The notes: generated by a model not told the origin, from the letters alone. A stretch of 64,000 nucleotides of DNA from a virus (IMGVR_UViG_3300020577_007160:1-64000); one strand, 5' to 3'; shown: positions 27,557 through 63,557, counted from the first letter of the stretch. Made by a program: numbers and translations.

Positions 27557-27575
27557 AAACTGACTCAGATTTTAA

Positions 27576-27926: not shown

Positions 27927-28372
27927 AATTTTCTTAAAATTAAGTTAAACAAGTATTGTAATATAACTCCGACTATTAATCTTTACTCAAATAATCTAAT
28001 CCGAACTCAATAACAGAAAGAATAAATCCCAAAGATTTTCCCCATACACACAATGAATATATTTGTTGCTTGCTGCATTCTACTACCCCTCAAATAACAA
28101 TATAAGGAATTGATCGAGTTTTTCAGGCGACTGGAAGGATTGCACAGGCAACCATTCGTAAGTGGTTTTAGGGACTTTAGCATAAATTATTACCCCATCT
28201 ATCTCATCCTCCTCTGGAGTATCATCCTCTAGGTCGGCATAGAGGAATGTGCCTATTGCTGTGTTCCTGACGTACAAACCATTGTCAAAATCAATAAAAT
28301 GCTTTTGTAATACTTCATCAAATGTCATTTCTTTCTCCATAAATCGAAATTTAAAACATCATTATTTTAAAA

Positions 28373-46132: not shown

Positions 46133-46696
46133 CTACTTTGAAAATAAAGTATTCCAAATCAACTCAACATTATTTTTCTGGTCTTCTAATGTGTTACTAG
46201 GCAACAAAGTCAATTTATGAGGATAATGTTCCTCTATATTGGAATACATTGTCCTACGACCTTTAAGGAACTTATCTGATTGATTATTATCGGATCTTGC
46301 TTCTCGTCTTGAATTCAAGACATCGTCATCGACTTTTAAAATAAACAAAGAATAATCAACATTCAAAGAATCAAGAGTCTCAAAAAAATTCTGCTTGAAA
46401 AATCTATCACCTTCAAACAAAATAGTATAATCCATGAAAACATTGTTTTCAACACAGAAATGTACTAATTCTTTTATTGATTTTATAGCAATCATAGAAA
46501 GACGATCTGTTCCAGAAAATAAAACACCATCTTCATAAATCCCTAGAACAATAATTCTGGGATCTAATGTTGGATACTTATATCCTCTAAGAAGATTAAA
46601 TTTAAAATCATAACCTGTTCCTAATTTTTCTAGGATAGATTTTACTATTCCAGATTTTCCGGTTCCAGGTTCTCCACCAATACATATGAATTTCAT
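46133..46696 (-). CDS. P-loop nucleotide kinase, 5-hydroxymethyluracil-DNA-kinase-like (base-modification associated)
   Basis: IGGEPGTGKS Walker A, LGIYE..FSGTDRLSM, ILFEGDRFF, RREAR...QSDKFLKGR. Confidence 0.7.
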   Translation of the reverse strand: MKFICIGGEPGTGKSGIVKSILEKLGTGYDFKFNLLRGYKYPTLDPRIIVLGIYEDGVLFSGTDRLSMIAIKSIKELVHFCVENNVFMDYTILFEGDRFFKQNFFETLDSLNVDYSLFILKVDDDVLNSRREARSDNNQSDKFLKGRRTMYSNIEEHYPHKLTLLPSNTLEDQKNNVELIWNTLFSK

Positions 46697-46754
46697 ATAT
46701 TACATATTAATGTTTTGTACATATTGATAAGAACGTAGGAACTTGATTAAAATG

Positions 46755-46783
46755 AAAATGTCCTATTTCAAATAGGACATTTT
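46755..46783 (-). terminator. Intrinsic terminator closing cassette 2
   Basis: AAAATGTCCTATTT-C-AAATAGGACATTTT; abuts promoter at 46730. Confidence 0.8.
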
Positions 46784-46808
46784 ACAAAAACACTACCAAC
46801 AAAATAAA

Positions 46809-47348
46809 TCAAATTTTCTTATTATTCATTTTTCTACAATAAGAATATATTGTTTCCATGATATCTGGAATATCAGATTCCATCATTAAAGAATATCTTG
46901 GATATATAGTTCCTTCTATGGGGTCTGAAGTTAATCCTGTTCTCCAGATTGTTTTTCCTCCCATTTTCTTAATAACATTTTTTCCTGACCCAGAATAAGA
47001 ATCTGACCAAAGAATAGCAACGACAACACACTTTTCATCAGCTTTAATAGTTATCACTCTGTCCTTTGAATCTAAATAAGGATCTTCACCTTTCCAACCA
47101 GGATGAGGAACACCACCTTCTGGATAACGCATATGTTCACCATATGATTTCCGAAAAACAACATGTCCTCGCTTATTTCTAGCAGGAATTAAGTCATCAA
47201 CTTCATATCCCAATTCTAATATCTTTTTATAATAAATATTCTTCTTCACTAATAAGAATAATTGTTTTGAACTCATTATTGGTGAATCAGAAGATTCACC
47301 TAGAACACTTTCTTCTAATCTTGATATTCTTCTTTCGATTGAATTCAT
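46809..47348 (-). CDS. Leader-family protein 2 (putative head-packaged internal protein)
   Basis: N-terminus MNSIERRISRLEESVLGESS; identical 25-bp upstream element 47366-47390; terminator 46755-46783. Confidence 0.65.
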   Translation of the reverse strand: MNSIERRISRLEESVLGESSDSPIMSSKQLFLLVKKNIYYKKILELGYEVDDLIPARNKRGHVVFRKSYGEHMRYPEGGVPHPGWKGEDPYLDSKDRVITIKADEKCVVVAILWSDSYSGSGKNVIKKMGGKTIWRTGLTSDPIEGTIYPRYSLMMESDIPDIMETIYSYCRKMNNKKI

Positions 47349-47365
47349 TTGATTTTCCTTTTATT

Positions 47366-47390
47366 TTGTTGAATTGAAAACTATATAACT
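47366..47390 (-). promoter_or_regulatory. Putative late promoter, AGTTATATAGTTTTCAATTCAACAA (copy 1 of 4 identical)
   Basis: Exact 25-mer also at 57558-57582, 61949-61973 and 63528-63552, each 17-20 nt upstream of a leader-family gene. Confidence 0.7.
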
Positions 47391-47410
47391 AATATATATA
47401 CATTGTTGAT

Positions 47411-47683
47411 TCAGATCTCTTTATATCTTACCTTAAAAATTGAATCCTTGAAACCAATATATTCATTCATTCTAGTGCGAACTACCCAATCACCAATTTT
47501 GATTGAATAAACTCCATAAATATTAGAATTAGAATTTTGAATTCTCAATTCTGGAAAATTGGAATATACGAACGGCAACTTTCCGTGTTTTCGTTCCCAT
47601 TCTTGAAATATAAGAGTTTCACCATTCCACGGTAATGCTTCTACCTTTTCATTGGTTTCAATATCTAAATACATCATAATCAA
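47411..47683 (-). CDS. Conserved small phage protein
   Basis: VEALPWNG...GDWVVR...FKDSIFKVRY matches the common VEAxQW / GDWII / KPDIFxxTY phage family. Confidence 0.55.
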   Translation of the reverse strand: MIMMYLDIETNEKVEALPWNGETLIFQEWERKHGKLPFVYSNFPELRIQNSNSNIYGVYSIKIGDWVVRTRMNEYIGFKDSIFKVRYKEI

Positions 47684-48564
47684 AATCCTTCGGTTGTGAA
47701 AATTGAATCAAAATCTTTTGAGAAAAATCCGGATGCACCAGGATGACCACCACCTTTATATTTCTTCGCAATAGCAGAACAGTCTAAATGCCTGAACGGA
47801 GAATATAAAGAAAACTTATAACCGTTCTCTCGACGACTATAAATAACACAATAATCTATTTCTTTGTCTTCAATATAATCAAATATCAGAGAATTACCAT
47901 CTGATGTATTAATAAAAACACAAGTATTATCAATATCTTTAAATTTACCTTTAAAAGCATTCTTAGCTAAAGTTTCATATCCTCTTCTTATATATTCCCA
48001 TATGTAACTACCTACAGAACCAAACTCTTGGGAAACGATCTCAATTTGACGCTCTAATGAAATCTTTTCATAGAAATAATTTATATCATAAGGAGAAGTA
48101 AAAAAGAATCTACATCCATATTGAACAGGTAATATTATATTTTCCCATAATTCTTTCTCTGAATTTTTCCAAGTATCATACTTGGCAATGCATTGAATTA
48201 AGAATGGTACTTCTATTTCTGAGAAAAAATGTTCCCATGTTAATTCACAACCAGATTTCTTTAAATTAAGAACAGTCTTAACATATTTCAAATATTTAAA
48301 ATTCTCGATATTACTATTAAACTCTTCAATAGCGGATTTATGATGATCTATCCATATAGTTTGTAAATAAGAATTAAAACATATCTTGTCGAGAATATCC
48401 ACTGGAAAAGAAACATCACAAATAACAACAGGCTTATTTGGTTCTAATTCGGGTACTGGTTCTCCATAATCATAGGGTATTAAAATAGTCTCTGGATTAA
48501 AATAACGAACTATTGCACCAGAGAATAAACCGTCAAGATCTTTAGAATGATAAATGCAATACAT
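47680..48564 (-). CDS. DHH/DHHA1 phosphoesterase
   Basis: YHSKDLDG, ICDVSF, WIDHHKS, SGCELTW, YDTW, GGGHPGASGF. Confidence 0.9.
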   Translation of the reverse strand: MYCIYHSKDLDGLFSGAIVRYFNPETILIPYDYGEPVPELEPNKPVVICDVSFPVDILDKICFNSYLQTIWIDHHKSAIEEFNSNIENFKYLKYVKTVLNLKKSGCELTWEHFFSEIEVPFLIQCIAKYDTWKNSEKELWENIILPVQYGCRFFFTSPYDINYFYEKISLERQIEIVSQEFGSVGSYIWEYIRRGYETLAKNAFKGKFKDIDNTCVFINTSDGNSLIFDYIEDKEIDYCVIYSRRENGYKFSLYSPFRHLDCSAIAKKYKGGGHPGASGFFSKDFDSIFTTEGF

Positions 48565-49066
48565 AATTTTAAAGTAAAATAAAAGGAAATAGAACTTATA
48601 TCTCTATTTCCTTTGAAGAATCTTTTAAAAAATCATCTGCGAAATAAATTGGATAAAATCTTCCTATCAAAACACCCCATGCACCCCATATTCTATCAAA
48701 TATATTAAAATCAAGAAATCTTGGTTTTTTTATAAATGGAGTTCCGTTGTATTGGAAGGATTCAGATACAAGCGTAAGATCATCTAATAAATACGCATGC
48801 TTATATTTTCTTTTCATTTATTATCAATAAATTATAATCTACTCAACCAAGAGCATTTAATGCATTTTCGATAGCAACTGCTTGTTCTCTTGTAGCAAAA
48901 AATGTTAATACAATATTCCCTGTCAATCTATCTCTTGAAGCAGATGCCTTTGTTGCTCCATTGGCAACAGCAACTTGGAGAAATTTAGAATAATTTTGTT
49001 TACCAAAATTAAACTCAATTATGTTGGGAATATTTATATAATGTTTTCGAGACATTTAAAATGTTC

Positions 49067-49378
49067 CTACCAATTTCTGTGAGTCATATCTGCATCCGCA
49101 GGTTCTAATTCAGAAGCATCAATAGGAAAAGTTTTAGACCCAATTTTTACAATGGGACTTCCACTTTTATGGAAACTAACAATTTTTCCTCGATCACCAG
49201 TATCATGGATTATAACCTCATCCCCTAATTCAAATTCATAGCCATCATCTGGCCAATCATTTGAGGATTCTCTTATACCAATCTTTCTTTCGAGATTTGA
49301 AATCCTCTTTTCTAAGAGAGAATTATTAGAAGGAAGTTCCTGTTCAATATCTCGCAAAAATTCTGATACATCTAACAT
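49067..49378 (-). CDS. Leader-family protein 3 with C-terminal SH3/KOW-like domain
   Basis: Likely start MLDVSEF at 49378 (AAGGA SD). Contains LLEKRISNLERKIGIRESS, then FELGDEVIIHDTGDRGKIV...IDASELEP. Confidence 0.55.
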   Translation of the reverse strand: MLDVSEFLRDIEQELPSNNSLLEKRISNLERKIGIRESSNDWPDDGYEFELGDEVIIHDTGDRGKIVSFHKSGSPIVKIGSKTFPIDASELEPADADMTHRNW

Positions 49379-49406
49379 TTTAATTCCTTTTATTTGATTT
49401 AATAAA

Positions 49407-49441
49407 AGGGGATTAAAACTTGTTAAAAATTCTAATCCCCT
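49407..49441 (-). terminator. Intrinsic terminator after the structural gene
   Basis: AGGGGATTA...TAATCCCCT plus T-tract. Confidence 0.65.
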
Positions 49442-49470
49442 GCAAAGAACGATTTTCAATACTATTAAAT

Positions 49471-50334
49471 TTAAACTATCTGGAGTTCAAATTGTCCCTT
49501 TTCCGCTAACATAAGTAGCAGAGTATATTTACCTGCAAGACGTTCGATCGTTGTTCCTCCAGCGGACAAACTACCAGAGAACTGCAGGTTCAACGTCTTA
49601 CCATTGTCAGGAGAAGAGAACACAAGGTAACCTGCTTGCGTAGTAGCTGTTGATGTTATCTTAACAGACTTTACACCAGATAATTCCAAGTCCTTTTCAG
49701 CTAAAAGAATAGCTGTAGAATTTTCTAATGAATGTTTATACGTAGCAGTCATGGCTGCAGCGTTGTCAGGTGCTGAAGAAAATTGAATGACAATTTGTCC
49801 GGTTTTATAATCTATAAAACCGTAAGTGGTATTCGCTGATGTTAAATTACCATTCCCATCGTCAGTAACATTATGACCAGATGATGAAAAATTAATTGTC
49901 AATGTTACTGTTCCAGGAACAATATTTCCATAGGCAGTAGCACCTTGATATTTTGTTATTCCTGTTGCACCCGTAATGCCTGTTGTGCCAGAAGTTACTT
50001 GCGTAGGTGTTGTGAAATAATAACGATATGCTGCATTGATGGCACTGGAATTGTCAGGTGCAGTAGTGCAGGTCAGCGTCCAAGCACCTGTGACGTAGTT
50101 AAGAGTTCCTGTTACTCCTGTTCCTGTCAAAACGCCTTTACCATCGTCAGTAATTGGTACTGACGCAGCAGAAACAACTACGGTAAATGTAACAGAACCA
50201 GGAACTAACAAAGTATTAGTTGTTGTTCCTGAGAACGCTTTTAATGTGCCATTAGCTGCTGATCCGGGATTTGCCGTTGCAGCAGCTTTCGTGCGAGAAG
50301 TACCAAATGTACGTGTTGAGAATGAGTTTTCCAT
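49471..50334 (-). CDS. Virion structural protein with two tandem beta-rich repeats
   Basis: T/G/A/S-rich. Repeat 1 VPGSVTFT..TDDGKGVLT..GTLNYVTG..APDN..AAY; repeat 2 VPGTVTLT..TDDGNGNLT..GFIDYKTG..APDN..ATY. Followed by terminator 49407-49441. Confidence 0.7.
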   Translation of the reverse strand: MENSFSTRTFGTSRTKAAATANPGSAANGTLKAFSGTTTNTLLVPGSVTFTVVVSAASVPITDDGKGVLTGTGVTGTLNYVTGAWTLTCTTAPDNSSAINAAYRYYFTTPTQVTSGTTGITGATGITKYQGATAYGNIVPGTVTLTINFSSSGHNVTDDGNGNLTSANTTYGFIDYKTGQIVIQFSSAPDNAAAMTATYKHSLENSTAILLAEKDLELSGVKSVKITSTATTQAGYLVFSSPDNGKTLNLQFSGSLSAGGTTIERLAGKYTLLLMLAEKGQFELQIV

Positions 50335-50354
50335 TTTTCCTCTAATCTAAATTA

Positions 50355-50870
50355 TTAAGTTATTAATTCTGTTAATACTTTTTGAACTTTTAAACGACCT
50401 TCTTTACTCAAAATGTTATCTGAATTTATTTCGAGATCAGGTCTTAACTGGTTGTCAGTATGGAATAATTTCTGGGTTATTTTCTCAACAAAAAGTCCAT
50501 TGTTATTATCAAAAAATAATTTCATATTTGGATTTGAAGCAATATTTGTTAACTGATTAAGTATCGCTGTTATATTATAACTTATAGTATTTTGATATCT
50601 TTCAAAATCTTCAGTCGAAAGATTCTCAATAATTAAATTGTCATAAAAATGATTTTCAATTTCTTCCATTTTATCCAACATTTTAGATAAACGAGATATC
50701 TGACGATAAACAACTAGGGATAAAAACCCTGAAAAATTTGTCTTAAAATCATGAACGAGTAATTTGATAGTATCAAGATCTTCCCGTGATAACTCACGAT
50801 TATTAATATAATTATTGGCTGTTTTTAATTCCAGCGTCTTTGATGATCCTTTGTTGATTAAATCACTCAT
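50355..50870 (-). CDS. Helical hypothetical protein in the putative late operon
   Basis: Clean ORF downstream of the AGTTATAT element at 51181-51188. Confidence 0.6.
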   Translation of the reverse strand: MSDLINKGSSKTLELKTANNYINNRELSREDLDTIKLLVHDFKTNFSGFLSLVVYRQISRLSKMLDKMEEIENHFYDNLIIENLSTEDFERYQNTISYNITAILNQLTNIASNPNMKLFFDNNNGLFVEKITQKLFHTDNQLRPDLEINSDNILSKEGRLKVQKVLTELIT

Positions 50871-51147
50871 TTATAGACTCAAATCTAATATCTTTTTTCT
50901 TCATTATAAATTCTAATTTATTGGTATCTAATTCTGATAAAAATTCTTTAAGTAATAAAACTCCAGAATAACTCAGATGAAGTGTTGCGTTTAAATTGCG
51001 ATTATTATGACCTTTTTTAGCTAGAACAGCTATTCTAGCTCCGTCTTCATATTCAAGAACTTCCAGAGTTAATTTTGAATTTTCATTAAGATTTCTAGAA
51101 TCAAGAAATAATTGTTTTACAACCTTAACTGTTGTAGTATCAGACAT
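50863..51147 (-). CDS. Hypothetical protein, first gene after the AGTTATAT element
   Basis: ORF track; element at 51181-51188. Confidence 0.6.
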   Translation of the reverse strand: MSDTTTVKVVKQLFLDSRNLNENSKLTLEVLEYEDGARIAVLAKKGHNNRNLNATLHLSYSGVLLLKEFLSELDTNKLEFIMKKKDIRFESINE

Positions 51148-51239
51148 GGGTAACTATCAATATTTAGAAATAGTTTACCCATATAACTCTATGGATTCTG
51201 CTACTGTAACAAATATTATCTAACCATAAATAAATTATT

Positions 51240-52067
51240 TTACTTGGTGCTTCCTAATCCACCCCTGATGGGCTTATCAATTTCTGATAATGAAATGGGA
51301 ATGAACTCAACAGACGGAGTATTTTTGATGAATCGCAACTGAGCTACCCTCATACCTGCCTGCAGGACAACACTTTCCCTATTGCCAAGATAAAGAAATA
51401 TAAATTTTATGAAGTCTTCTTTTCCACAATAATCCGAATCAATTATTCCTACACCAGTTGGCATGGTTACTCCAGCTTTAGCTAATGACGATCGAACTTG
51501 AATTTCAATATGAAATCCTGATGGTGGTTCTATGATCAATCCCGTATCAACTATCACTGGAGTATTTGGAAGAAGAATAACCTCTGTTGGAAGAAAAACA
51601 TCATAGCCATCTGAGAATGGGGTCATTCTCTTTGGCATTGGAGTCCCATACTTATTATAAATACGAGCAGATAAATACTTGGAATCCGTATCTTTAAGAT
51701 ACGTCTTTAATGTATCTTTATAATAAGAAGACTCTAATAAATCTTTCCCAATAGATTTTAATTCATCTAATGCTTTTTTGAATTCAGAATTCAAAGAACC
51801 AATATTCTCAACAAGAGAATCTACGTCATCCTTTTTATTCAAAATCTTTCGAACAGAAGTAGATTCTACTTCCTCTATTTGAGTAAGATGAGAAAGAATA
51901 GAATTTATTCTTTGATTCAATAATGCCAGAAATATGACATAATGACGTTGTGCTTTATCATGAACAACGTTCTCAAATAAAGTCTTTATTTTATTGTACT
52001 CTGGAGAACGCGACGTAAGACTCAGAATAAAATCTTCATCAATAGTCAATAAAGTTCCATTACTCAT
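51240..52067 (-). CDS. dut: Trimeric dUTPase with ~130-aa helical N-terminal extension
   Basis: Motifs SDGYDV, VRSSLA, GIIDSDYCG, RVAQL, RGGLGST. Confidence 0.9.
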   Translation of the reverse strand: MSNGTLLTIDEDFILSLTSRSPEYNKIKTLFENVVHDKAQRHYVIFLALLNQRINSILSHLTQIEEVESTSVRKILNKKDDVDSLVENIGSLNSEFKKALDELKSIGKDLLESSYYKDTLKTYLKDTDSKYLSARIYNKYGTPMPKRMTPFSDGYDVFLPTEVILLPNTPVIVDTGLIIEPPSGFHIEIQVRSSLAKAGVTMPTGVGIIDSDYCGKEDFIKFIFLYLGNRESVVLQAGMRVAQLRFIKNTPSVEFIPISLSEIDKPIRGGLGSTK

Positions 52068-53127
52068 TTAATAATTCCTTAACATTATCAGGTAAATTCT
52101 CAAATACAAAATCTAAGTTCTTCAAAGAACTGAATTTTCTTCTCAAATTATAGCGGAGATTTTCAGGAGAAACGTCTAAATTTTGAGAAACTTCCTCTAA
52201 CGTTTTTCCATTAACAAGATGAAGAAAAGAATCAATATACATCTGTGTTTTATTGAAATCTTTTATTCGAGGAAACGTGAGTTGTCTTCCCTCAAAAAGA
52301 AGAAAAACTTTTTTCATATTTTCAGAACCAAGAGTATGATATAATTCCATTATCCCTGGATACTTATCCTCCAAGGACATCACGTAAAGGAATTGACTAT
52401 CTAACATATAATTATTATCCTTATGAATACACTTATAGGGATCAGACTCTGGATCCAACGTAAATATTAAAGCACAACGTGCAATAGAGAACGCTTTTAA
52501 TTTCAATAAAATAATAGAAGAAACTTTAGGATCTAATTTTAAAGAAAGTAAATATTTATTTACTGCTCTGCTTTTGAACGTAGAAGAATCTAATAATGCT
52601 TCTACCATGAATGACGCTAATTGAAATAGTACTTCAGAGTTCTCGTGATATGAAGAAAAAACCCTAATATAATAAGAAAGCGTACCATGAGGATCAGTAT
52701 CTAATTCAAACTCCGATTGAATGAGTTCCTTGTCAACTTCCTCTAATGTTATTGTTTTCTTACAAAACTCAGAAACATAAAAAGACTGGATGCCAAGCAC
52801 CAGTCTCTTATCAAAATACGCATAAAGTTGTTTTACGTCTGGAAATTTTAATCTTCGGGATTCCAAATCTGTTATTAACATTGAATAACAATAAGAAAAT
52901 AAATCCTCGAATACTTCTTCTCCACCTTCATAATTGAACCGATTATTGGATCTAGAGAGGAAAGAATTAGCCAGTGGTATGGATAATACCTTTAATCTCG
53001 AGAATTCACTTTGGTTCTCAGTTTTACAATATTGGGTATAAACTGAATAAAAATCAGTTAAAAATTCATAGTCAACAGTTTGGGATTTCAGATTTTTTAT
53101 CTGAGTTTTTAACGTTGGTGCTGACAT
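52060..53127 (-). CDS. Putative transcription regulator: sigma-like N-terminus, Mor-like/HTH C-terminus
   Basis: FEDLFSYCY...LYAYF (region-2-like); LGSENMKKVFLLFEGRQLTFPR followed by GKTLEEVSQNLDVSPENLRYNL (HTH). Confidence 0.45.
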   Translation of the reverse strand: MSAPTLKTQIKNLKSQTVDYEFLTDFYSVYTQYCKTENQSEFSRLKVLSIPLANSFLSRSNNRFNYEGGEEVFEDLFSYCYSMLITDLESRRLKFPDVKQLYAYFDKRLVLGIQSFYVSEFCKKTITLEEVDKELIQSEFELDTDPHGTLSYYIRVFSSYHENSEVLFQLASFMVEALLDSSTFKSRAVNKYLLSLKLDPKVSSIILLKLKAFSIARCALIFTLDPESDPYKCIHKDNNYMLDSQFLYVMSLEDKYPGIMELYHTLGSENMKKVFLLFEGRQLTFPRIKDFNKTQMYIDSFLHLVNGKTLEEVSQNLDVSPENLRYNLRRKFSSLKNLDFVFENLPDNVKELLNE

Positions 53128-53151
53128 AATTTAAATAATAATCAGAATGTA

Positions 53152-54549: not shown

Positions 54550-54553
54550 AAAT

Positions 54554-54583
54554 AAAGGGGATTCCTGAAAAGGAATCCCCTTT
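54554..54583 (-). terminator. Intrinsic terminator
   Basis: AAAGGGGATTCCT-GAAA-AGGAATCCCCTTT hairpin with T-tract on the minus strand. Confidence 0.8.
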
Positions 54584-54595
54584 TGAAGGGTATTA

Positions 54596-55276
54596 TCAGG
54601 ATATTGCTAAAGAATCTTCATTCAAATTAAATACGGTTTTCATCACATGCTTGATTGTTTTTTCGAATTTCCAAACAATATTGGAATCGAAGTCAAGAAT
54701 ACGCCCAAGAACAACCATGGGAATATAACCCTCTTTCATATTTCGTTGGCGTTTCAACGACTCACGATACGTGTTAAACTTGTCACCAGTTTCAGGACTA
54801 GGTTCAACCAGTTCCTGAAAGAAATAAGTAATTCCTGGCAACTTTTCTTCGTATTTTTCAAGATACGAAAGAGCAGTTTCTACAAATATCTTTGTTGATA
54901 TTTCGTTCTCGCAGGAATGGGAATGAAGATAATAATCGAACGTTCCCAAACTTCCAGAGTCTTCCTCAGAGGAATCAGAACCAATACTGGTTGATTCCAA
55001 CATTGTTACGTTGCGAGAATCATCACGCACGATTGACGCACGAATTTTATCGGAAACGAAATTAATAAGAACTGAGCGCAAAGATGTGAAACGCAATTCT
55101 TCTGGATCATTCACCATCACGTCATCCATATTGGACAGGTTGGAAAACGCTTTTAGATAGAGTTCCTGCATCGCATCTTCATATGAGAGAATTCGATTCT
55201 CCATACGATGTGCTTGTTTGGCCAAGAAAGAGGAGTTTGTTGAAACAAAATTCGAGAACATTGATGCTGCATTCAT
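54596..55276 (-). CDS. Phage sigma-factor-like protein
   Basis: Region-2-like LSYEDAMQELYLKAF...F..LRSVLINFVSDKIR; AGGA SD before ATG at 55276 (MNAASM). Confidence 0.55.
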   Translation of the reverse strand: MNAASMFSNFVSTNSSFLAKQAHRMENRILSYEDAMQELYLKAFSNLSNMDDVMVNDPEELRFTSLRSVLINFVSDKIRASIVRDDSRNVTMLESTSIGSDSSEEDSGSLGTFDYYLHSHSCENEISTKIFVETALSYLEKYEEKLPGITYFFQELVEPSPETGDKFNTYRESLKRQRNMKEGYIPMVVLGRILDFDSNIVWKFEKTIKHVMKTVFNLNEDSLAIS

Positions 55277-55470
55277 CGTTGATCCTATAAGAAAATTTGG
55301 AAAGAGTGAATTTTTAGAACTTCCACAAGAAATTCTTGGACTAACTTCGCGCTTTTTCCAATACGAAGCAAATTTATTTTTGCAAAACCACAAGATTTCT
55401 TCAAAAAAGTTTAGAAAAGTTCTGATTTTGGCTCAAAACGCACCTAAAATTTTGTTCTCAGCATCTAAAA

Positions 55471-56367
55471 TTACTGCCGGAACATTAGGAATGGTAACTG
55501 TTCCGGCTTGAAAACCTGAGATTTTTCACAAGCGGATTTGAAAATTTCAGGAGAAACTTCATTTGGGTCACCGTCCAAACCCACCACCACACCTGCATTG
55601 CAGCCGTACCGCAAGAACGTATTACGCACACGCTCGCGGTCTTTAATAGAAACATCTGGATCCAAGCAAACGAGAACTGTTTTGAACCTATAGGAGATTT
55701 GTTGATACTGCGAGAATGACAGTTTTTTACCCAAAACTGCTATACCGGATTCTCCAGCTGCAATTGCGGAGAAGCAACCTTCGCACAAAATACAATGATC
55801 TGTTGTCACGTTATTGATATTGTAAACGATATCAGTTTTGGGAACAGCAGCATTCACATACTTTGGGATAGCATGACGGTAGGAACGAGCAGTAAAATAT
55901 ATAATAGAAGAATTTTTGTATTCAGGTATAACAATTCTTTCTTTGAGATTATTCTTTCCAGATAATAACTTATAATGATTTATCTGATCTTCCGTTATGT
56001 TTCGAGAACAAAGATACTCAAAAGCATCTGACCCTCGAACAATTGGATCCCCGATTTCAGATTGTTCAAATACAATTGGTTTCCTGAATTCTGGAAAACT
56101 TAGTTTTGATAATCTGTTTTTTATATTTGTCAAATCATATCGGTCAATGTCCAAGTGGAGGTCAATCAAGGAATCGAGATCTTTGAGTTCTCCTTGGACA
56201 CCACATCGAAAACAATAATAAAAATTCTTAAATATGTTGACTAATAAATGATTCTGAGTATCTGCTCTTTCTTCAAAAGGTTTTTCAGTTTTCCGGTATT
56301 GACAATAGGGACAACACGTATAAACCTTTCCACCTGAGGCACGAACCTTATCAAAATCTATAGTCAC
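55471..56367 (-). CDS. DNA primase (Zn finger + TOPRIM)
   Basis: CPYC...CFRCG zinc-binding domain, YLCSRNI, RIVIP, ARSY, PKYVN, LCEG, CLDPD. Confidence 0.85.
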   Translation of the reverse strand: MTIDFDKVRASGGKVYTCCPYCQYRKTEKPFEERADTQNHLLVNIFKNFYYCFRCGVQGELKDLDSLIDLHLDIDRYDLTNIKNRLSKLSFPEFRKPIVFEQSEIGDPIVRGSDAFEYLCSRNITEDQINHYKLLSGKNNLKERIVIPEYKNSSIIYFTARSYRHAIPKYVNAAVPKTDIVYNINNVTTDHCILCEGCFSAIAAGESGIAVLGKKLSFSQYQQISYRFKTVLVCLDPDVSIKDRERVRNTFLRYGCNAGVVVGLDGDPNEVSPEIFKSACEKSQVFKPEQLPFLMFRQ

Positions 56368-57074
56368 TGAGCCAATCCTTCTGCTAATTCTTTCACAATG
56401 AAACGAACAATATCTGAATTCGCATATATAAAATCAAATTTAGAATTTGTTATTATTCCTAGTCCTGACTTGGATATTGGACGAATTAAGGAATTACCTG
56501 ATTTTATTTCTTCAAATGTATAAAATAATAATTCTAAGTAATCACAGAACTTTATTATAAGATCAAGTTCATTCACAAATTCCTTATAAAGTTCTTGATC
56601 TATAGTACTAGGATCAGCGAATAACCCACAAAAATATTTCAGTCTTGAATTAACTTCCTCTGGAGTATTTGAAAAATCTAATAACAAAGGCAATTCATCC
56701 GCGAAACATGATGACGTAAAACATTCTAATATATAATCTCGTTCTCCTGAATTCTCAAAAAATTCTGAATTCTTAAACGTATAAACTATATCCCCTGTTA
56801 CAGATTCCCCAAGGTCATGGTATAGTGAAGACTTAAGTACATATAATTCTCCAATTGCTAATATATTTGAATCCTCTATTTTAGAATTAAAATAGAACAA
56901 CAAAGATTTATAAACCAATGAAGCTAAAATAGAAACATTATAAGAATGCTCTGCTACTGATTGGGACTTATTTGTTCGAACTAAAGAATATCGCTGAATA
57001 TTATTCAGATTTCTTGAAAGAAAGATATTATCAACAATGTTAGCCATAGCAGTAAAACAATAGTAATTAAACAA
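56364..57074 (-). CDS. HD-domain nucleotide phosphohydrolase (YfbR/DatZ-like)
   Basis: IQRY, QSVAEHSYNV, YHDLGESVTGDI, KFCDYLE. Confidence 0.85.
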   Translation of the reverse strand: MFNYYCFTAMANIVDNIFLSRNLNNIQRYSLVRTNKSQSVAEHSYNVSILASLVYKSLLFYFNSKIEDSNILAIGELYVLKSSLYHDLGESVTGDIVYTFKNSEFFENSGERDYILECFTSSCFADELPLLLDFSNTPEEVNSRLKYFCGLFADPSTIDQELYKEFVNELDLIIKFCDYLELLFYTFEEIKSGNSLIRPISKSGLGIITNSKFDFIYANSDIVRFIVKELAEGLAQ

Positions 57075-57110
57075 CTTTACTAAAAGAACGTCTAATGGTC
57101 TATAAAAAGA

Positions 57111-57136
57111 AAATGCCTATCGATCGATAGGCATTT
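57111..57136 (-). terminator. Intrinsic terminator (perfect 26-bp palindrome) fused to promoter motif 57085-57107
   Basis: AAATGCCTATCGATCGATAGGCATTT; near-identical arms at 61470-61495. Confidence 0.8.
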
Positions 57137-57171
57137 AAATAAATATATACTAATTTAGTTAGTATTTCAAA

Positions 57172-57537
57172 TCAAAGAAAGAACTCATCATCTTCATAAT
57201 GAAATCTAGAATTCGTACCTTCTATAACAGAAAATACAAAATTTTCTAAATAATAATTTAATTTTCCAACTTGACTAGAAGTTAATCTTAAATCAGAATT
57301 TCTCTCTGATTGGTACTTTAAATATTTCCAAAAAGAAGCAAGATATTCTTTTTGATCCTCATCCGCCAACTTTAAAAATTCAATTTTATGTTTAACTGTT
57401 AGACTTTGATGCTCTGCTACTAACCAACTTAATACTTTATTTAAAGTAGTTGTGTAACTTGATTCTTTGACCCCTACTTTTCTTTCAAGTTTCTCTAATC
57501 TCTCCATGAGAGATAAAGACGATCTTCTGTTGGTCAT
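57172..57537 (-). CDS. Leader-family protein 4 (putative head-packaged internal protein)
   Basis: MTNRRSSLSLMERLEKLERKVGVKESS. Confidence 0.7.
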   Translation of the reverse strand: MTNRRSSLSLMERLEKLERKVGVKESSYTTTLNKVLSWLVAEHQSLTVKHKIEFLKLADEDQKEYLASFWKYLKYQSERNSDLRLTSSQVGKLNYYLENFVFSVIEGTNSRFHYEDDEFFL

Positions 57538-57582
57538 TGTTGACTCTTTCTAATATATTGTTGAATTGAAAACTATATAACT
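57476..57582. repeat. ~105-bp dispersed repeat (promoter + 5' UTR + leader codons), copy A
   Basis: Near-identical to 61867-61973 and similar to 63448-63552. Confidence 0.9.
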
Positions 57583-57598
57583 AATATATATAGAATCA

Positions 57599-58912
57599 TT
57601 AATTATCTTCTTTTTCTAGTATTCGAGAATGTTCTAACTTCGTTGTCAAAAACACAGATTCATTTTCTATCCCTTTTCGCATTTTGGCAGTGTATGCTCT
57701 CATTTGATTTAATACCTTTTCTTCCGCTGTTTGATTCAGAGAAATAATCCCATGGGCAAGGTGTGCTTTTTTCGAGGATTCAGCTAGATCCCCTTTCGTG
57801 ATTGTATCCTTATTCCAAGCATCAACCTTGGGCTGTGAAGCACTCAACACAGGACAATTATAAGAAACTGCAAGGGATATTAAATCTGAATATAAGTTCC
57901 CACGCTCTTCATATGAATTCTGATTTTTACTATTCTCAGTATTCAGAGAATTCATATTATCCGCATAATCAATGATTATTAAATCAGGTTCAAATCCATA
58001 ATTATATTTCAATCGGTATAAATGGGATTTAATAGCGGAAACCGTTACAGTATGAGGATCAAAATACTTAATGAAAAACATCCCACAATCTTCAAATACT
58101 TTGAATTTTTCCAAGAGGACATGTGAAGGTAATTTCAAAACATCGTCATGACTCAGTTCTGCAATATTAGAAACATGTTTAAATTCTATTTCTACCTCAG
58201 GGACTTCTAAAGTATAAAATACAACCCTCTTTTTTGCCATTATATTATAAGCAGAAACATTAGAAAGAAATGTTGTTTTCCCTCTGCCTGGTGGTGCGAC
58301 CACAATATAAAGAAATTTTCGGAACATTCCTCCTAACATTTTTTTATCTAATTTAGGATAACCCGTTGATATACTATTTTTGACAGCATACTCTTCGCTG
58401 TATCGGGATTGAAGAGTATTGACATTGCTATTAAAATATAATCCATAGGATAAGGGCTTACCAATAGATATTGAATCCTGAATAATGGAAATTGCATCTT
58501 CTAAATTTCCACCCCTTTCAAGAATTGAAACAACACGAGATAACCCTTGCTTCAAGGATTGTTCCTGAATAAATCGAAGAACATAATCTACAACGTCTTC
58601 GATTTTATCAACATCCATATAAAATATTTCATCCATCAAAGATAAAATACTTTCAATTGTATCCTGTTGAGTTTCTGTTTGTTTTAAATTTCGGGTAATG
58701 AATCGTGCAAATGAATCCTTGTCAGGTAAGTAATTCCATTCGTTGACAAAAAATACAAGATTCTTGCATATAATCTGAAAATAAAAATGAGTGAAATAAC
58801 TTGGCTTTATTAAATCCAACCCATAAGAAAATAAAAATTTTGGGTCTCTTGTCATCATGGCCAGAATTTTTTTCTGGTAATTAACATCAAAATTAAACTT
58901 TGTTTCAATCAT
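57599..58912 (-). CDS. Replicative DNA helicase (DnaB/T4 gp41-like, SF4)
   Basis: ISTGYPKLD, APPGRGKT, YTLEV, IIIDYAD, SASQ, LAES, AKMR. Confidence 0.9.
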   Translation of the reverse strand: MIETKFNFDVNYQKKILAMMTRDPKFLFSYGLDLIKPSYFTHFYFQIICKNLVFFVNEWNYLPDKDSFARFITRNLKQTETQQDTIESILSLMDEIFYMDVDKIEDVVDYVLRFIQEQSLKQGLSRVVSILERGGNLEDAISIIQDSISIGKPLSYGLYFNSNVNTLQSRYSEEYAVKNSISTGYPKLDKKMLGGMFRKFLYIVVAPPGRGKTTFLSNVSAYNIMAKKRVVFYTLEVPEVEIEFKHVSNIAELSHDDVLKLPSHVLLEKFKVFEDCGMFFIKYFDPHTVTVSAIKSHLYRLKYNYGFEPDLIIIDYADNMNSLNTENSKNQNSYEERGNLYSDLISLAVSYNCPVLSASQPKVDAWNKDTITKGDLAESSKKAHLAHGIISLNQTAEEKVLNQMRAYTAKMRKGIENESVFLTTKLEHSRILEKEDN

Positions 58913-58982
58913 TACTATAATTCTCTCTATGATTTAATATCTCTATTTTCTTGTGTAAAATATCTGAACGAGTTCAACATTA

Positions 58983-60044
58983 TTAGATTTTTAGATCTTC
59001 ATAGATTTCTAACTCAGGTAATGTTCCAGTTTCTAAAAACGTCTCCATTTTCTTCTTTGATATTCTTGCATTCTTAGAATTGAATCCTGATAACAATCTT
59101 TCTTTGCGATAATCCCAGAATATCTTGAATTCAATTCCTGGCCATGGATCCTGTTCTACCTGACGAATTTCCTCAGCCTGACGATCCAGGTAATATCCAA
59201 GATATCTTCCACTCCGCTTACGAAACAGTTTCTTGAATGAACATAATGCAGTTTCCATACGAAAATAATTCACGTCATGGGCAACATCTGGATATCTTCT
59301 TTTGATTTCCCTGATGATACCATCAGCCTTATTTTGAAGATAGGAAACTTTATCATTGTCATACTTGATATCCCTATAGAACTTCTTATTATCCTCATAG
59401 TAGCGACTTGTCCATTCATCCTTCCCAACCACTAGGCACATGCCATTCCGATGAGAGTCGCTGCCAGAATCCTCAAATAACAGACTCGTGGGTTCTATTG
59501 GTAATCCAACGCATTCCGCTAATGCCTGGCAGTAATACCAGGACATGTATCTGCCGAATTTATGAAATTTGGTCTTTGCAAAATTAAATACTTTCTTATA
59601 ATTCTCTTTTTTATCTTGGGAAGAACATAAAGCCATGAACGTATCCAATTGGTTTTCCCCAACAGCTTCTTTATATGATAAATACATTTCTGGTAAATAA
59701 CCCTTTGCGTAACGAGTATCAGTTTGATAGCGTAAATGATTATAATTTTTAGTATTCCAAATCATTAATCTTTCAATATTAACATTCTCATAATCTGGTA
59801 TCTCATTCCAAATACAATATGATGTTACAGGTTGATATGTACAACCATAAAGAAATACAATCCAAAATTTTTGTTCTATGTTGTATTCCTGCCGATCAAA
59901 AATGTAATTTAATAACGCTATTGGTGGGTCAACATCAGTGGTTCTCAATCCCCAAACAAACCATCGTATGAATGCTTCTATTCTATTTTCTCTGAGTCGA
60001 AAATCTAAACCAGTTTCCATTCTTTTATCATTGTATTGAGGCAT
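58983..60044 (-). CDS. Amino acid:DNA transferase (aGPT-pyrophosphorylase clade-2-like, HhH fold); DNA base hypermodification
   Basis: DVDP, W.VFLYG..Y, YQTDTRY, HKFGRYMSW, SHRNG, METALCSFKK, YLGYY. Confidence 0.75.
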   Translation of the reverse strand: MPQYNDKRMETGLDFRLRENRIEAFIRWFVWGLRTTDVDPPIALLNYIFDRQEYNIEQKFWIVFLYGCTYQPVTSYCIWNEIPDYENVNIERLMIWNTKNYNHLRYQTDTRYAKGYLPEMYLSYKEAVGENQLDTFMALCSSQDKKENYKKVFNFAKTKFHKFGRYMSWYYCQALAECVGLPIEPTSLLFEDSGSDSHRNGMCLVVGKDEWTSRYYEDNKKFYRDIKYDNDKVSYLQNKADGIIREIKRRYPDVAHDVNYFRMETALCSFKKLFRKRSGRYLGYYLDRQAEEIRQVEQDPWPGIEFKIFWDYRKERLLSGFNSKNARISKKKMETFLETGTLPELEIYEDLKI

Positions 60045-60466
60045 TCATTAATTTGATCTAAAACAATATGAGCAATTTCATTGCCACTTATCCAAGCAGG
60101 ATCTTCAATACCATTATATTTCCCCTGAGAAAAACTAGCTAAAGATACTAATTTGTCAGTACATTCCGGGAAATCTTTTATCATATCTTCCTTGTGTCCA
60201 GGTATCATATAAAGAATCTTATCTGACCATTCAATCAATTCCTTTGTTACATGTTTTGATCGATGATCCTTGACCCCAATATGGATATCATAAGATTTTA
60301 ATGCTTCTCGAATTTTCTTTCCCATAGGAGACTTCTGACCAGAACATTTGAACTTTGTTCCTGCGGAATCTACTTTGTGATCCGTTCCTTTGAGCATAGC
60401 TTCTGCCATATAATGGGCTGCAGCAGAACGATTTTTGTTACCAGTACAAATCATTAAAATATTCAT
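60005..60466 (-). CDS. Low-molecular-weight phosphatase (LMW-PTP/ArsC fold)
   Basis: CTGNKNRS (CX5R P-loop), VDSAGT, HRSK, IEDP general acid. Confidence 0.9.
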   Translation of the reverse strand: MNILMICTGNKNRSAAAHYMAEAMLKGTDHKVDSAGTKFKCSGQKSPMGKKIREALKSYDIHIGVKDHRSKHVTKELIEWSDKILYMIPGHKEDMIKDFPECTDKLVSLASFSQGKYNGIEDPAWISGNEIAHIVLDQINECLNTMIKEWKLV

Positions 60467-61410
60467 AATCCTAAATCTTCCTTTTTTAATTTTCCTTCAG
60501 AAATTAGTTTGTCATAATTCGCCTTTGCAACTGGTCTGGAATTATGATAAATATTTGTCATTTGAAATATTTTATCAAGTTCATAATTATAGGGGTGAAA
60601 TTCCTGAAATCCATGTTCAGAAAATTCAGAAATTAATTCTTGAGGTGTTAATTGAAATTCAGAAAATACTGCTGATAAAAATCTGGAAGGATAGGATAAA
60701 GCATTATACATTTTATTGAGATCCCTTGACATTGTGAAATGTCGAAATTCAATTGTTTCTGTTTCAGAAAATACTTGCTTCAAATTGACTGCTTCTCTGA
60801 CAACAAGATGCCATAACAACTTGCCAGACTTGTCTTTTGCTGCATGAGCCTCATAAAATTCCTGAGGTGTTTTAGCCAACATCATTTTGGTAAAAACATT
60901 CTTTGGAACAACATAATGATGTGAACGCTTACGACGCTTATAACGTTCCCATGCACCTTTGTATTCTGCTTCAGAAGAATAATCAGATTTAATTGGAACT
61001 GGTATTGGTTCAATTAAATTATAAAGTTCTTTTCCATAAAATTGTGTGTATTTTGCTATTCGTTTTAAAGCGGGTAAATTGTTTTTCAATCCAGGTATAT
61101 GGATATGAACATGAAGATTCGTAGTGAAATTGAAATATTTGTCTCTATTGTTATCTTCTAAAATACCAAATGTATCATAAATACCTTTTACAATATCTAA
61201 TAACTTACTTGGAGTAGATGCTATTGATGTTTGGATTTCACCACCAAATTTATTAAATTCATGCTTTGGGTCATTTGCTGTTCCATTAACAGAATTCATT
61301 ATTGAACCATCTTTCGTACAGAACTTACTACCCTCTGGTAGTTTAGTACGAACATCAATATCCCCAATTTCGAGTTCACAACCCAAACTATAATTTGTTA
61401 AATCTAACAT
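60463..61410 (-). CDS. Putative amidoligase (COOH-NH2 ligase, glutamine-synthetase-like fold)
   Basis: GCELE, DGSI, GGEI, LHVHI, AVNL and TIEFRHF motifs. Confidence 0.75.
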   Translation of the reverse strand: MLDLTNYSLGCELEIGDIDVRTKLPEGSKFCTKDGSIMNSVNGTANDPKHEFNKFGGEIQTSIASTPSKLLDIVKGIYDTFGILEDNNRDKYFNFTTNLHVHIHIPGLKNNLPALKRIAKYTQFYGKELYNLIEPIPVPIKSDYSSEAEYKGAWERYKRRKRSHHYVVPKNVFTKMMLAKTPQEFYEAHAAKDKSGKLLWHLVVREAVNLKQVFSETETIEFRHFTMSRDLNKMYNALSYPSRFLSAVFSEFQLTPQELISEFSEHGFQEFHPYNYELDKIFQMTNIYHNSRPVAKANYDKLISEGKLKKEDLGL

Positions 61411-61469
61411 AATCCCTTTTGTATATTCTTTTAAGTTTTCAACAGAACGATTAAAACTTTATAAAAAAT

Positions 61470-61495
61470 AAATGCCTATCACTAGATAGGCATTT
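61470..61495 (-). terminator. Intrinsic terminator fused to promoter motif 61444-61466
   Basis: AAATGCCTATC-ACTA-GATAGGCATTT. Confidence 0.8.
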
Positions 61496-61520
61496 AAATA
61501 CAAAACCAGAATATTAAAAT

Positions 61521-61928
61521 CTAAACATTAAATGGATATTTTTCAAGATCTATTTCTGCCAATTTTTTAAATTTTTGACCTTTGAAAAAGAATACACGAG
61601 GATCTTTAATTTTAGTTACACTAATGAATTTATTCACTGCTAAAATAAAAGATTTAAATTCCTTTGTATCCTGATTACCCTCATCATCCTCTTTACAAAA
61701 ATTCCATTTTTTAGATCCTTGAAGATCTCTATAAACACTATAAATTATATTTTTTGCCTCATCTATGTAACATATTCCAATATTTCCAAATAATAATTCA
61801 TCCCAATAAGTGTTGAAATGATACTTCCCAACATTACTTATTGTTTCTGTTATAAAGTCTTCATTCACTTTTCTTTCGAGTTTCTCTAGTCTCTCCACAA
61901 GAGATAAAGATGATCTTCTGTTGATCAT
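61521..61928 (-). CDS. Leader-family protein 5 (putative head-packaged internal protein)
   Basis: MINRRSSLSLVERLEKLERKVNEDFITE. Confidence 0.7.
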   Translation of the reverse strand: MINRRSSLSLVERLEKLERKVNEDFITETISNVGKYHFNTYWDELLFGNIGICYIDEAKNIIYSVYRDLQGSKKWNFCKEDDEGNQDTKEFKSFILAVNKFISVTKIKDPRVFFFKGQKFKKLAEIDLEKYPFNV

Positions 61929-61973
61929 TGTTGATTCTTTCTAAGATATTGTTGAATTGAAAACTATATAACT
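61867..61973. repeat. ~105-bp dispersed repeat, copy B
   Basis: Near-identical to 57476-57582. Confidence 0.9.
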
Positions 61974-62007
61974 TAGTTCATAAATTATGAACAATCTTTT
62001 AAATCAC

Positions 62008-62712
62008 TTACAATCTAATATTCTGGTAATCAATACCAATATCAACCGAATAAGAAGAAACTAATGAAAAATCTGATTCAGATAATATATATAACTCTCC
62101 AGCATTTAACTGAATTAAATTCTCATTTATGCCAGACCTTTTAAAGACTTCCTGAGTAGAAGAAACAATAATAGAATCGTCACGCTGGCATGACCATGCT
62201 GGTCTTGTTGAATTCCGAAAAGAAAACATTTTACCATGTTTCCATAATCCTACCACAGCCATTGATGCTCTTGGAAACCGCTGGATTACATTGATTCCCT
62301 TTTGTAGGTAATTATGAATTATTTCAGCATCATTAGTTGTTACAGGTTCAATATCATATAACTCTTTCCAATATTTGGGATCTGCCTGAGTCAATACTCC
62401 GTTCATAGCAACGGAAAGATTATTGCCAATATCTATTGGTTGATTGTGTTCTAAGCCAGAAGTAGAATATCGAGAATGACCAATTAATGAAATTAATTCT
62501 GAAGACAATAAATCTTGTTTGATCGTAGAAAAATGTTTCTCTAAAAAAGATTTTCCATCGGTTGGCTCTATGAGAGTCTTAATTTTATTATCAAATAAAT
62601 AGGAAACACCCGTTGCATGTTTTCCACGTATGCTATTTTCTACTATAAAATTAGATATCAACTCAATATTATTGAGAGATGACTTTCCTTTGAAAGCTAA
62701 AATAGAACACAT
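62008..62712 (-). CDS. Class II (Ntn) glutamine amidotransferase
   Basis: M-C start (Cys1 nucleophile), RGKHATG, GHSRYST, NQPI, MNG, NDAE, RPAW. Confidence 0.88.
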   Translation of the reverse strand: MCSILAFKGKSSLNNIELISNFIVENSIRGKHATGVSYLFDNKIKTLIEPTDGKSFLEKHFSTIKQDLLSSELISLIGHSRYSTSGLEHNQPIDIGNNLSVAMNGVLTQADPKYWKELYDIEPVTTNDAEIIHNYLQKGINVIQRFPRASMAVVGLWKHGKMFSFRNSTRPAWSCQRDDSIIVSSTQEVFKRSGINENLIQLNAGELYILSESDFSLVSSYSVDIGIDYQNIRL

Positions 62713-62810
62713 ATTATCAATAAATTAAATTTTAAATACAAATGAAAAATAACGCTCCAACAACTAGAACTGTAGCATAAATTTAGAACGTGAAATACTC
62801 TATAAAAATA

Positions 62811-62838
62811 AATATGCCCTTTGTATAAAGGGCATATT
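62811..62838 (-). terminator. Intrinsic terminator fused to promoter motif 62785-62807
   Basis: AATATGCCCTTT-GTAT-AAAGGGCATATT. Confidence 0.8.
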
Positions 62839-62870
62839 AAACTTCAGAAATTCATTTCTATCAAATTGAA

Positions 62871-63509
62871 TCAAACAACTTCAAAAGATATAAATTCATG
62901 TTTTAATAAATTTTTTCTTTTAAGATCCTCTGCTTCTTTTATAGAATTCAAAAGATAAGAATTACCATAAGAACCCTGATCACTTAATTCAAAATTAAAA
63001 AGAAGAAATTCCTCCTCAGAAAAACTATCAGAAAAATCTCTAAAACGTATATCTCTTAATAAATAAATCTGTTCTTCTTCCATTAACTTTGCATTTATGG
63101 CATCTATAAAGGATTCTGAAGTAAGATTACCAAAATCTTCATCATCAAAAATAGTGTCTATGATCTTGTCTACTCTTTTAAGATATTTTTTTAAAACCAA
63201 ATCATTTTTAATAGGTAAAATTTTATTTGGTCTAATTGGGCTAATACCATCTATTTTCAATATTCCAGCATTCATTAATTTATAATAATAGTCTTCCGCT
63301 TCCTTTTTTGTTTCAAAAAATTTTATAAGATCTGCAGGACTATCTTCAGCTTGTGGGCGGACTCGATAAAGGAATAATTTACAATAATTATTCCCATAAT
63401 AAAAAGTTGCATAAGTATATTTTACCTTATTATTTTCACGAATATCTACTTTTCTTTCGAGTCTACTTAGTCTCTCTGTAAGAGAGAGAGTTGTTCTTCT
63501 ATTAATCAT
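62871..63509 (-). CDS. Leader-family protein 6 (putative head-packaged internal protein)
   Basis: MINRRTTLSLTERLSRLERKVDIRENN. Confidence 0.7.
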   Translation of the reverse strand: MINRRTTLSLTERLSRLERKVDIRENNKVKYTYATFYYGNNYCKLFLYRVRPQAEDSPADLIKFFETKKEAEDYYYKLMNAGILKIDGISPIRPNKILPIKNDLVLKKYLKRVDKIIDTIFDDEDFGNLTSESFIDAINAKLMEEEQIYLLRDIRFRDFSDSFSEEEFLLFNFELSDQGSYGNSYLLNSIKEAEDLKRKNLLKHEFISFEVV

Positions 63510-63552
63510 TGTTGATTCTTTCTACTATTGTTGAATTGAAAACTATATAACT
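63448..63552. repeat. ~105-bp dispersed repeat, copy C
   Basis: Similar to copies A and B; contains the exact 25-mer at 63528-63552. Confidence 0.85.
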
Positions 63553-63557
63553 CTCTT

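Follow-up and report, generated by a model that had tools for sequence, protein, structure and literature searches.

Predicted single-gene transcription units with a common promoter-like element and N-terminal tag in the replication block of an uncultured phage

Why should genes with mutually unrelated bodies, each preceded by the same 25 nucleotides, interrupt the replication and DNA-modification operons of a virus? This question is raised by IMGVR_UViG_3300020577_007160, the record of a complete virus genome of 179,512 bp with direct terminal repeats, 32% GC and about 300 genes, nearly all of them on the minus strand. The window analysed here is its first 64 kb (positions 1-64000, 64,000 nucleotides (nt)), and positions beyond 64,000 refer to the complete genome. 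An original prediction, made from the window sequence alone, had interpreted four segments and a diverged fifth one as swappable cassettes, each composed of promoter, leader, variable cargo, terminator and a restart promoter that makes the insertion non-polar. Our analysis suggests that these units are probably stand-alone single-gene transcription units (morons), which belong to one large family and represent accessory insertions in the replication and DNA-modification block.

The 25-mer at the upstream end of the units exists in exactly four copies, all of them exact and on the minus strand (47366-47390, 57558-57582, 61949-61973 and 63528-63552), and none is expected from 100 shuffled sequences. 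A fifth copy with two mismatches is located at 81180-81204. As had been proposed, three of the copies extend into a longer repeat over the leader codons, which had been estimated at about 105 bp and measures 107 nt (57476-57582 and 61867-61973 with 93% identity, 63448-63554 with 66%). Besides the promoter and the 5' untranslated region (UTR), this repeat takes in roughly the first 21 codons. The core of the 25-mer, GTTATATA, has a strand bias of 18 versus 1 genome-wide and is placed 37-44 nt upstream of the ATG in nine genes whose products open with a common stretch, here called the tag. In relatives the core lies on the coding strand (6:0, 4:0 and 3:0), there also before tag genes, and one relative copy of the element is AGTTATATAGTTTTCAA. 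The leader RNAs exhibit no structure beyond that of shuffled controls (folding z-scores from -0.7 to +0.6) and match no Rfam family. Since the core is strand-biased and conserved before tag genes, and since the leader RNA is unstructured, we read the 25-mer as a predicted promoter together with the first transcribed bases.

All four units are oriented on the minus strand. In the 47-kb unit the core stands 41 nt before the ATG of a tag gene for 179 amino acids (aa; 46809-47348), whose product starts with MNSIERRISRLEESVLGE and continues with a body without known relatives; an intrinsic terminator follows (46755-46783; 13-bp stem, T tract, folding z-score -6.0), and then ACGTTCT (46730-46736) before a gene for a P-loop kinase-like protein (46133-46696). 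The 57-kb unit contains a tag gene for 121 aa (57172-57537; product beginning with MTNRRSSLSLMERLEKLERKVGVKE), a terminator (57111-57136; z-score -5.5) and ACGTTCT (57085-57091) before an HD-domain gene (56364-57074). The tag gene of the 61-kb unit (61521-61928, 135 aa) has leader DNA 93% identical to that of the 57-kb unit but an unrelated body. Its terminator (61469-61496; z-score -7.2) has the same arms, AAATGCCTATC/GATAGGCATTT, as that of the 57-kb unit, in agreement with the original prediction, and is followed by CGTTCT (61444-61449), a degenerate restart motif with a T before it, upstream of a gene for a 315-aa protein (60463-61410). The 63-kb unit consists of a tag gene for 212 aa (62871-63509), a terminator (62811-62838; z-score -5.2) and ACGTTCT (62785-62791) before a glutamine amidotransferase (GATase) gene. 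The supposed fusion of a hairpin to ACGTTCT is thus correct with respect to the terminators, which are strong in all four units (stems of 11-13 bp plus T tract), but incomplete with respect to the motif of the 61-kb unit. Terminator-like sites number 24 versus 7.0 +/- 2.7 in shuffled sequences.

The full arrangement of promoter, tag gene, terminator and ACGTTC is present at the genes starting at 47348, 57537, 61928, 63509, 66491, 81163 and 153437. The diverged unit that had been suspected at 27.5 kb also exists (27503-27968, minus strand) and comprises a degenerate promoter, GTTATATT, a tag gene for 116 aa (27576-27926), a terminator and ACGTTCT (27503-27509).

A few peculiarities of the leaders and of the core may be mentioned here. 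In several leaders, the codons for SLSL..ER give rise to (CT)n/(GA)n tracts, in which slippage is possible. In the metagenome run X6, an additional CTCT (AGAG on the coding strand) is found at 63550, in the GA tract adjoining the 25-mer of the 63-kb unit. TAAGTAACTCTTTAT is repeated in tandem in non-coding DNA at about 90100-90500, a short distance downstream of a GTTATATA motif.

The original prediction had named the alignment of related genomes as the way to verify that the units lie between otherwise contiguous genes. Relatives were found as metagenomic contigs (L-numbered) via the helicase and the amidotransferase, and the contigs were then retrieved and compared; an 18 kb nucleotide query matched none of 50,697 phage records, a scan of IMG/VR via the helicase confirmed no relative, and an exact search for the promoter 22-mer in viral and metagenome contig collections gave no match. 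In the retrieved contigs, all four sites were found empty. The junction between the DnaB-like helicase and the HD-domain gene, occupied here by the 57-kb unit, is empty in L001 and L005/L006, and AGACGTTCT is already present before the HD gene; L002 carries three small untagged open reading frames (ORFs) at this junction and the distant L014 a membrane-protein gene. The junction between the genes for a 90-aa protein and the kinase-like protein, occupied by the 47-kb unit, is empty in L016 (flanks 54% and 59% identical), where ACGTTCC lies about 40 nt upstream of the kinase start. In L021, the closest relative (flanks 73-80% identical), the junction of the SF2 helicase and GATase genes lacks the 63-kb unit but already has a terminator with ACGTTCT, and the junction of GATase and the 315-aa protein, the place of the 61-kb unit, is a bare 13 nt. 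At the latter junction, the GATase gene of L019 even overlaps the gene for a 310-aa protein. Homing-endonuclease genes of the HNH/NUMOD3 type also occur at junctions of the tag cassettes (L017:3654-4238 between GATase and its partner, L019:7363-7962 upstream of GATase). Because each junction is empty in at least one relative, all four units are, judged by these alignments, insertions relative to at least one relative.

The same comparison speaks against a restart promoter as a general, built-in part of the cassettes. At three of the four loci ACGTTC(T) resides in the empty site, in L001 and L005 with the same ACGTTCT as before the HD gene here, and the inserts sit directly at those units. Only the 61.4-kb unit brought a terminator and its degenerate restart promoter along, into a tight gene junction of 13 nt. 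Indeed, among all 7-mers of the genome ACGTTCT ranks first in intergenic enrichment, with 53 versus 11 copies by strand, 29 of the 53 in the 8% of non-coding DNA, and it usually lies 35-45 nt upstream of a start codon. A terminator often precedes it, and the T tract of this terminator continues into TTTTTATAGA or TTTTAATCAA. Such terminator/promoter units of about 55 nt (terminator-TTTTTATAGA-N7-ACGTTCT) are found at at least 14 places, half of them behind untagged genes, and in relatives as well; some copies share 30 identical nt, for instance 57083-57112 and a copy near 153.05 kb. Sigma-70-like sites are not enriched (107 versus 98.5 +/- 8.7 expected), and the ACGTTCT unit has an upstream TTTTA instead. 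In the early and middle regions of the genome, the terminator/ACGTTCT unit serves as a general punctuation element. The motif ACGTTCT is missing from the structural block at 90-130 kb, where GTTATAWA occurs. We read ACGTTCT and GTTATATA as two predicted promoter classes that are used genome-wide; GTTATATA was also considered as a general late promoter, which was rejected, since the intergenic DNA of the main structural operons lacks it. A candidate phage sigma factor is encoded at 54596-55393 and conserved in relatives (weak matches to Sigma70_r2, E 0.009, and PHROG 1740, E 3e-4), and it may read one of the two motifs.

The second common component of the units is the tag itself. It forms a predicted amphipathic helix, ..ER[LI]xxLExK[VIL].., at the start of 26-29 ORFs genome-wide, which are spread over about 20 places, including the inside of replication and DNA-modification operons. 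The bodies behind the tag are mutually unrelated, save one repeat-protein family and one pair, and the cassette bodies gave nothing significant against Pfam and PHROGs. The 121-aa protein has one sub-threshold Pfam match (FlhF_N, E 0.0044, 17.5 bits at a cut-off of 27) and no PHROG match, and the 179-aa and 212-aa proteins have no usable match in the protein Atlas.

Within 16 residues after the helix, 23 of the 26 tag genes encode [LIV]-x-E, compared to 25% of background windows. The phage has a T4-type head, with a major capsid protein of the Gp23 family (Pfam E 1.2e-52) and a prohead protease of the gp21 family (Peptidase_S77, Pfam E 1.8e-18), both above the curated cut-offs, and portal and tail-sheath genes were found as well. 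In T4, gp21 cleaves after L/I-x-E, and a capsid-targeting sequence of 10 residues loads unrelated internal proteins into the head (PMC9026906). Since a gp21-family protease is encoded and [LIV]-x-E follows the tag, the most likely function of the tag, by analogy to T4, would be that of a capsid-targeting propeptide, which is cut off by the prohead protease. The prohead protease (130374-131915) itself opens with a tag-like stretch, ..TRIKILESQ..; T4 gp21 also bears a cleavage-type motif near its own N-terminus (PMC9026906). Tag genes within 95-127 kb, i.e. in the structural block, have no promoter, terminator or ACGTTC of their own, whereas seven or eight tag genes among replication-type genes possess their own promoter and terminator motifs. 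This distribution is as expected if tag genes in foreign transcriptional surroundings need the timing of head assembly.

The original prediction of a variable middle between conserved ends was confirmed: in relatives, this tag and promoter also stand before other bodies, and at two sites shared with this genome the bodies differ. At the junction of the genes for a 287-aa and a 72-aa protein, a tag gene is present in the window, in L001 and in L002, each time with a different body. The tag gene at 49067-49378 (minus strand), whose site holds differently continued tag genes in relatives, has no GTTATATA promoter of its own and carries its tag, LLEKRISNLERKIGIRES, from about residue 20. Before the SF2 helicase gene, whose L001 orthologue is 55% identical, the 66-kb unit of this genome (65982-66491) corresponds to L001:7277-7849, a complete unit that agrees in promoter, type of tag, terminator and ACGTTCT but has an unrelated body. 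The bodies of eight tag genes from relatives have no counterpart among the bodies of this genome; the tag genes of relatives gave only two BLAST matches to it, both at the tag end, one of which goes beyond the tag by about 30 residues. With relatives whose helicases are 74-77% identical, hardly any body is shared. The tag ORF of L001:7277-7849 has an in-frame TAA right after the RLKE motif, behind which the body goes on in the same frame; a nonsense mutation, read-through or an error of sequencing may account for this.

Relics of units were also detected. Between the SF2 helicase and DnaB genes of L001 (9478-9545), GTTATATA is directly followed by a hairpin and ACGTTCC without any ORF, i.e. 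the relic has no cargo. Two further remnants of tags lie at L001:2362-2436 and L001:2673-2760, one being a tag-only ORF with a stop right after L-R-E-S and the other an ATG with a tag start that runs into a terminator and an ACGTTCC promoter. In the present genome, the 57-kb and 61-kb units form a mosaic, with 93% identity over promoter and leader, background identity in the body and a rise at the terminator. From these mosaics and cargo-less relics we infer an exchange of cargo by recombination.

How far does this support the idea that the conserved ends allow such an exchange? The mosaics and relics speak for it; however, the promoter and tag explain the conservation of the 5' end alone, and because the promoter and the protein tag of at least 26 genes lie there, this conservation needs no recombination. 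Recombinant junctions between the repeats, for which the original prediction had suggested a search in sequencing reads, were not seen in the contigs of four metagenome runs, nor were empty-site variants. The contigs break at the repeats, and their loose ends stem from the remaining copies of the 25-mer and the terminator/promoter unit. Natural strains are nevertheless homologous-recombination mosaics near the cassettes. A contig of run X2 shows no difference across 57563-63668 and a divergence of about 17% in 63669-63900; this switch from 0% to about 17% lies 115 nt upstream of the 63-kb unit. Run X6 contains a block of 5% divergence (60013-61349) flanked by identical contigs.

The absence of an integrase, in contrast, was corroborated, since the complete genome has no match to the tyrosine (PF00589) or serine (PF00239) recombinases. 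RecA/UvsX-like and SbcC/gp46-like proteins are encoded. Given these two proteins and the lack of an integrase or resolvase, general recombination is a plausible route for an exchange across the conserved ends.

On the moron interpretation, a unit would consist of a phage-specific promoter (AGTTATATAG...), a short unstructured leader, an ORF opening with the tag, an unrelated body and an intrinsic terminator, which would adjoin an ACGTTCT-type promoter driving the next gene. At three of the four sites, this terminator/promoter unit would already have been in place when the insertion occurred. The tag would act as a capsid-targeting propeptide to be removed by the T4 gp21-type prohead protease of the phage, and the private promoter would give the timing of head assembly to tag genes that sit among early and middle genes. 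Gain, loss and replacement of bodies may proceed via general recombination on the conserved ends and via illegitimate events, with no need for a dedicated recombinase.

Several points weigh against this interpretation. The GC content of the units (0.27-0.36) does not differ from that of their flanks (0.28-0.32; genome 0.318 +/- 0.039). The near-identical strains represented by contigs of four metagenomes (56300-63900) all keep the cassettes, and a single joint, 57112>61867, was rejected as a recombinant, since its 30-nt side lies within the repeats. The direction of change, insertion here or deletion in the relatives, follows from parsimony over few and fragmentary metagenomic contigs. Promoter activity, timing and termination of the units are predictions from the DNA; GTTATATA is not visible in the intergenic DNA of the main structural operons, and since these operons do not visibly use it, a 'late' timing of this promoter class is our inference. 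The capsid-targeting role of the tag is argued from analogy, and the enrichment test for [LIV]-x-E treats paralogues as independent samples. The capsid-targeting leader of T4 is a different 10-mer and probably unlike the tag in sequence.

A more far-reaching version is possible but rather doubtful. The units might constitute a dispersed, integrase-free exchange system for virion-packaged (injected) proteins, with the promoter and tag as a 5' arm of about 100 nt and the terminator/promoter unit as a 3' arm of about 55 nt, both acting as portable homology, and with a fast-evolving set of 25-30 such proteins in each genome. The recombination machinery of the phage itself would then swap, delete and plant effector bodies at any transcription-unit boundary, even inside core operons.

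It is also conceivable, but unlikely, that the units are an ordinary family of paralogues without any exchange of cassettes, which arose by duplication and illegitimate insertion and whose bodies have diverged, while purifying selection preserved the ends. Every conserved segment has indeed a plausible function of its own, the absence of mismatches in four copies of the 25-mer at a leader identity of 66-93% fits selection and not recency, and the near-identical strains show no variants. However, the identity between the 57-kb and 61-kb units extends to the UTR and to synonymous positions and, over a few nucleotides, drops from about 90% to the background level. Orthologous sites contain different bodies even though the core genes are 55-77% identical, and cargo-less relics with both ends exist.

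We regard a true shuffling of the PeSL type as quite improbable. In this process, two terminator/ACGTTCT units would recombine and excise a mini-circle, which would be re-inserted at another such unit, a mechanism documented in RB49/phi1 (PMC2839356). The wide distribution of the 55-nt units in this genome and in relatives, the 30 identical nucleotides of some copies and the position of three of the four inserts, precisely where a unit was already present, would all fit. Since the unit is present on one side only, namely 3' of the cassettes, the strict mini-circle route does not fit; on the 5' side, an upstream stop codon is followed by the 25-mer, and a unit-gene-unit topology is absent. Finally, it is hardly credible that the 25-mer is no promoter but an operator acting at the protein or RNA level (translational repressor or processing site) or the target of a site-specific nuclease: the 17 nt after GTTATATA (GTTTTCAATTCAACAA) are invariant in the four copies and nearly unchanged in L001, which exceeds the needs of a -10-type element, but the leader RNAs are unstructured, the 8-mer core alone is common to other tag genes and relatives at a fixed distance to the ATG, and no nuclease gene lies within or beside the units.

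The genes that flank the units were for the most part named correctly in the original prediction. The upstream flank of the 57-kb unit is a DnaB-like helicase (57599-58912, minus strand; Pfam DnaB_C, E 3.6e-18; PHROG 19, E 9e-63), and the gene between the 63-kb and 61-kb units encodes a class-II GATase-like protein (62008-62712, minus strand; PHROG 14519, E 8e-11; weak Pfam GATase_6). Among the further flanks are a YfbR-like HD protein, a weak DnaG-like primase and the C-terminal domain of an SF2 helicase. In contrast, the name amidoligase for the 315-aa protein gained no support, as this protein matched no Pfam or PHROG family. The replication genes are nearest to those of SPO1-like phages (about 30% identity).

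Some differences to the relatives concern the surrounding genes. An entire DNA-hypermodification module (amino acid:DNA transferase PF18724, low-molecular-weight phosphatase, the 315-aa protein and GATase) is missing in the 76% relative L001 (58983-62712 compared with L001:7929-10941), where the SF2 helicase adjoins DnaB. The SF2 helicase of the present genome (63558-65513, of which 63558-64000 is the 3' end contained in the window) exceeds the L001 orthologue by about 140 aa; this additional segment sits within the DExH motif, ends with ..VHNC and looks like a mini-intein. Conversely, the DNA polymerase of L001 contains an insert of about 420 aa that is missing from the polymerase of this genome.

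The idea of such units is not conceptually new, as morons, PeSL cassettes and the internal-protein loci of T-even phages already describe the principle. The term moron denotes a lone gene, equipped with a promoter and a terminator, that separates two neighbours which adjoin each other in related phages (Hendrix et al. 2000; reviewed in PMC3594210). The units likewise lie between genes adjacent in relatives, at all four sites, and their promoter and terminator motifs are present and non-random, as far as the sequence alone can tell. Classical morons, however, belong to temperate phages, are expressed from the prophage, often have a distinct GC content and are mutually unrelated, whereas the units are found in a phage without integrase, have a flank-like GC content and form one family with a common promoter and tag. 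PeSL elements are repeated intergenic stem-loops with a promoter of sigma-70 consensus at gene indels of T4-type phages (Arbiol et al. 2010, PMC2839356; Comeau et al. 2014, PMC4122927). In both systems a repeated stem-loop/promoter marks indels or replacements of genes without known relatives, the insert is transcriptionally insulated (a prediction in our case) and no integrase is involved. Since the promoter is of the ACGTTCT type here, the units are an analogue and not a homologue of PeSL cassettes, and they also differ in that the PeSL element is found on both sides of a gene, whereas here it is 3' only and the 5' side is a different conserved promoter with tag codons. Integron cassettes, too, are promoter-supplied, exchangeable single-gene units with conserved ends, but the units described here have neither an integrase nor an attC-like site nor a single array.

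The closest parallel to the tag are the internal proteins of T-even phages, in which a short N-terminal leader ending with L/I-x-E is likewise attached to unrelated, small proteins of fast turnover (PMC9026906, PMC3012670). The gp21-family protease and the gp23-family capsid protein are shared with this phage, in which packaging and cleavage of the tag proteins are predictions. The genes for the T-even internal proteins are confined to two loci (PMC2839356), which, according to the accounts given of Repoila et al. 1994 in PMC2839356 and PMC12373910, are polymorphic, with conserved regulatory sequences flanking variable genes. The present tag is longer than the T4 leader and helical, at least 26 genes carry it compared to three in T4, and they occupy about 20 dispersed places instead of two loci. 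What differs from the known systems is thus the tag itself, the number of tagged genes and their dispersal into core operons.

The general principle has been described previously for T4-type phages and lambdoid morons. The comparative data add a site-by-site picture of turnover, with empty, filled, replaced and relic sites, for an uncultured lineage that is widespread in wastewater and rivers; near-identical DNA was found in metagenomes from wastewater, activated sludge and rivers (12 studies). If the units are indeed what we propose, they would be a natural example of accessory genes planted in essential operons without polar damage. If, moreover, the tag is a capsid-loading signal, about a tenth of the genes of this phage would encode proteins that are delivered together with the DNA and quickly renewed, and they would be a rich source of candidate anti-defence effectors.

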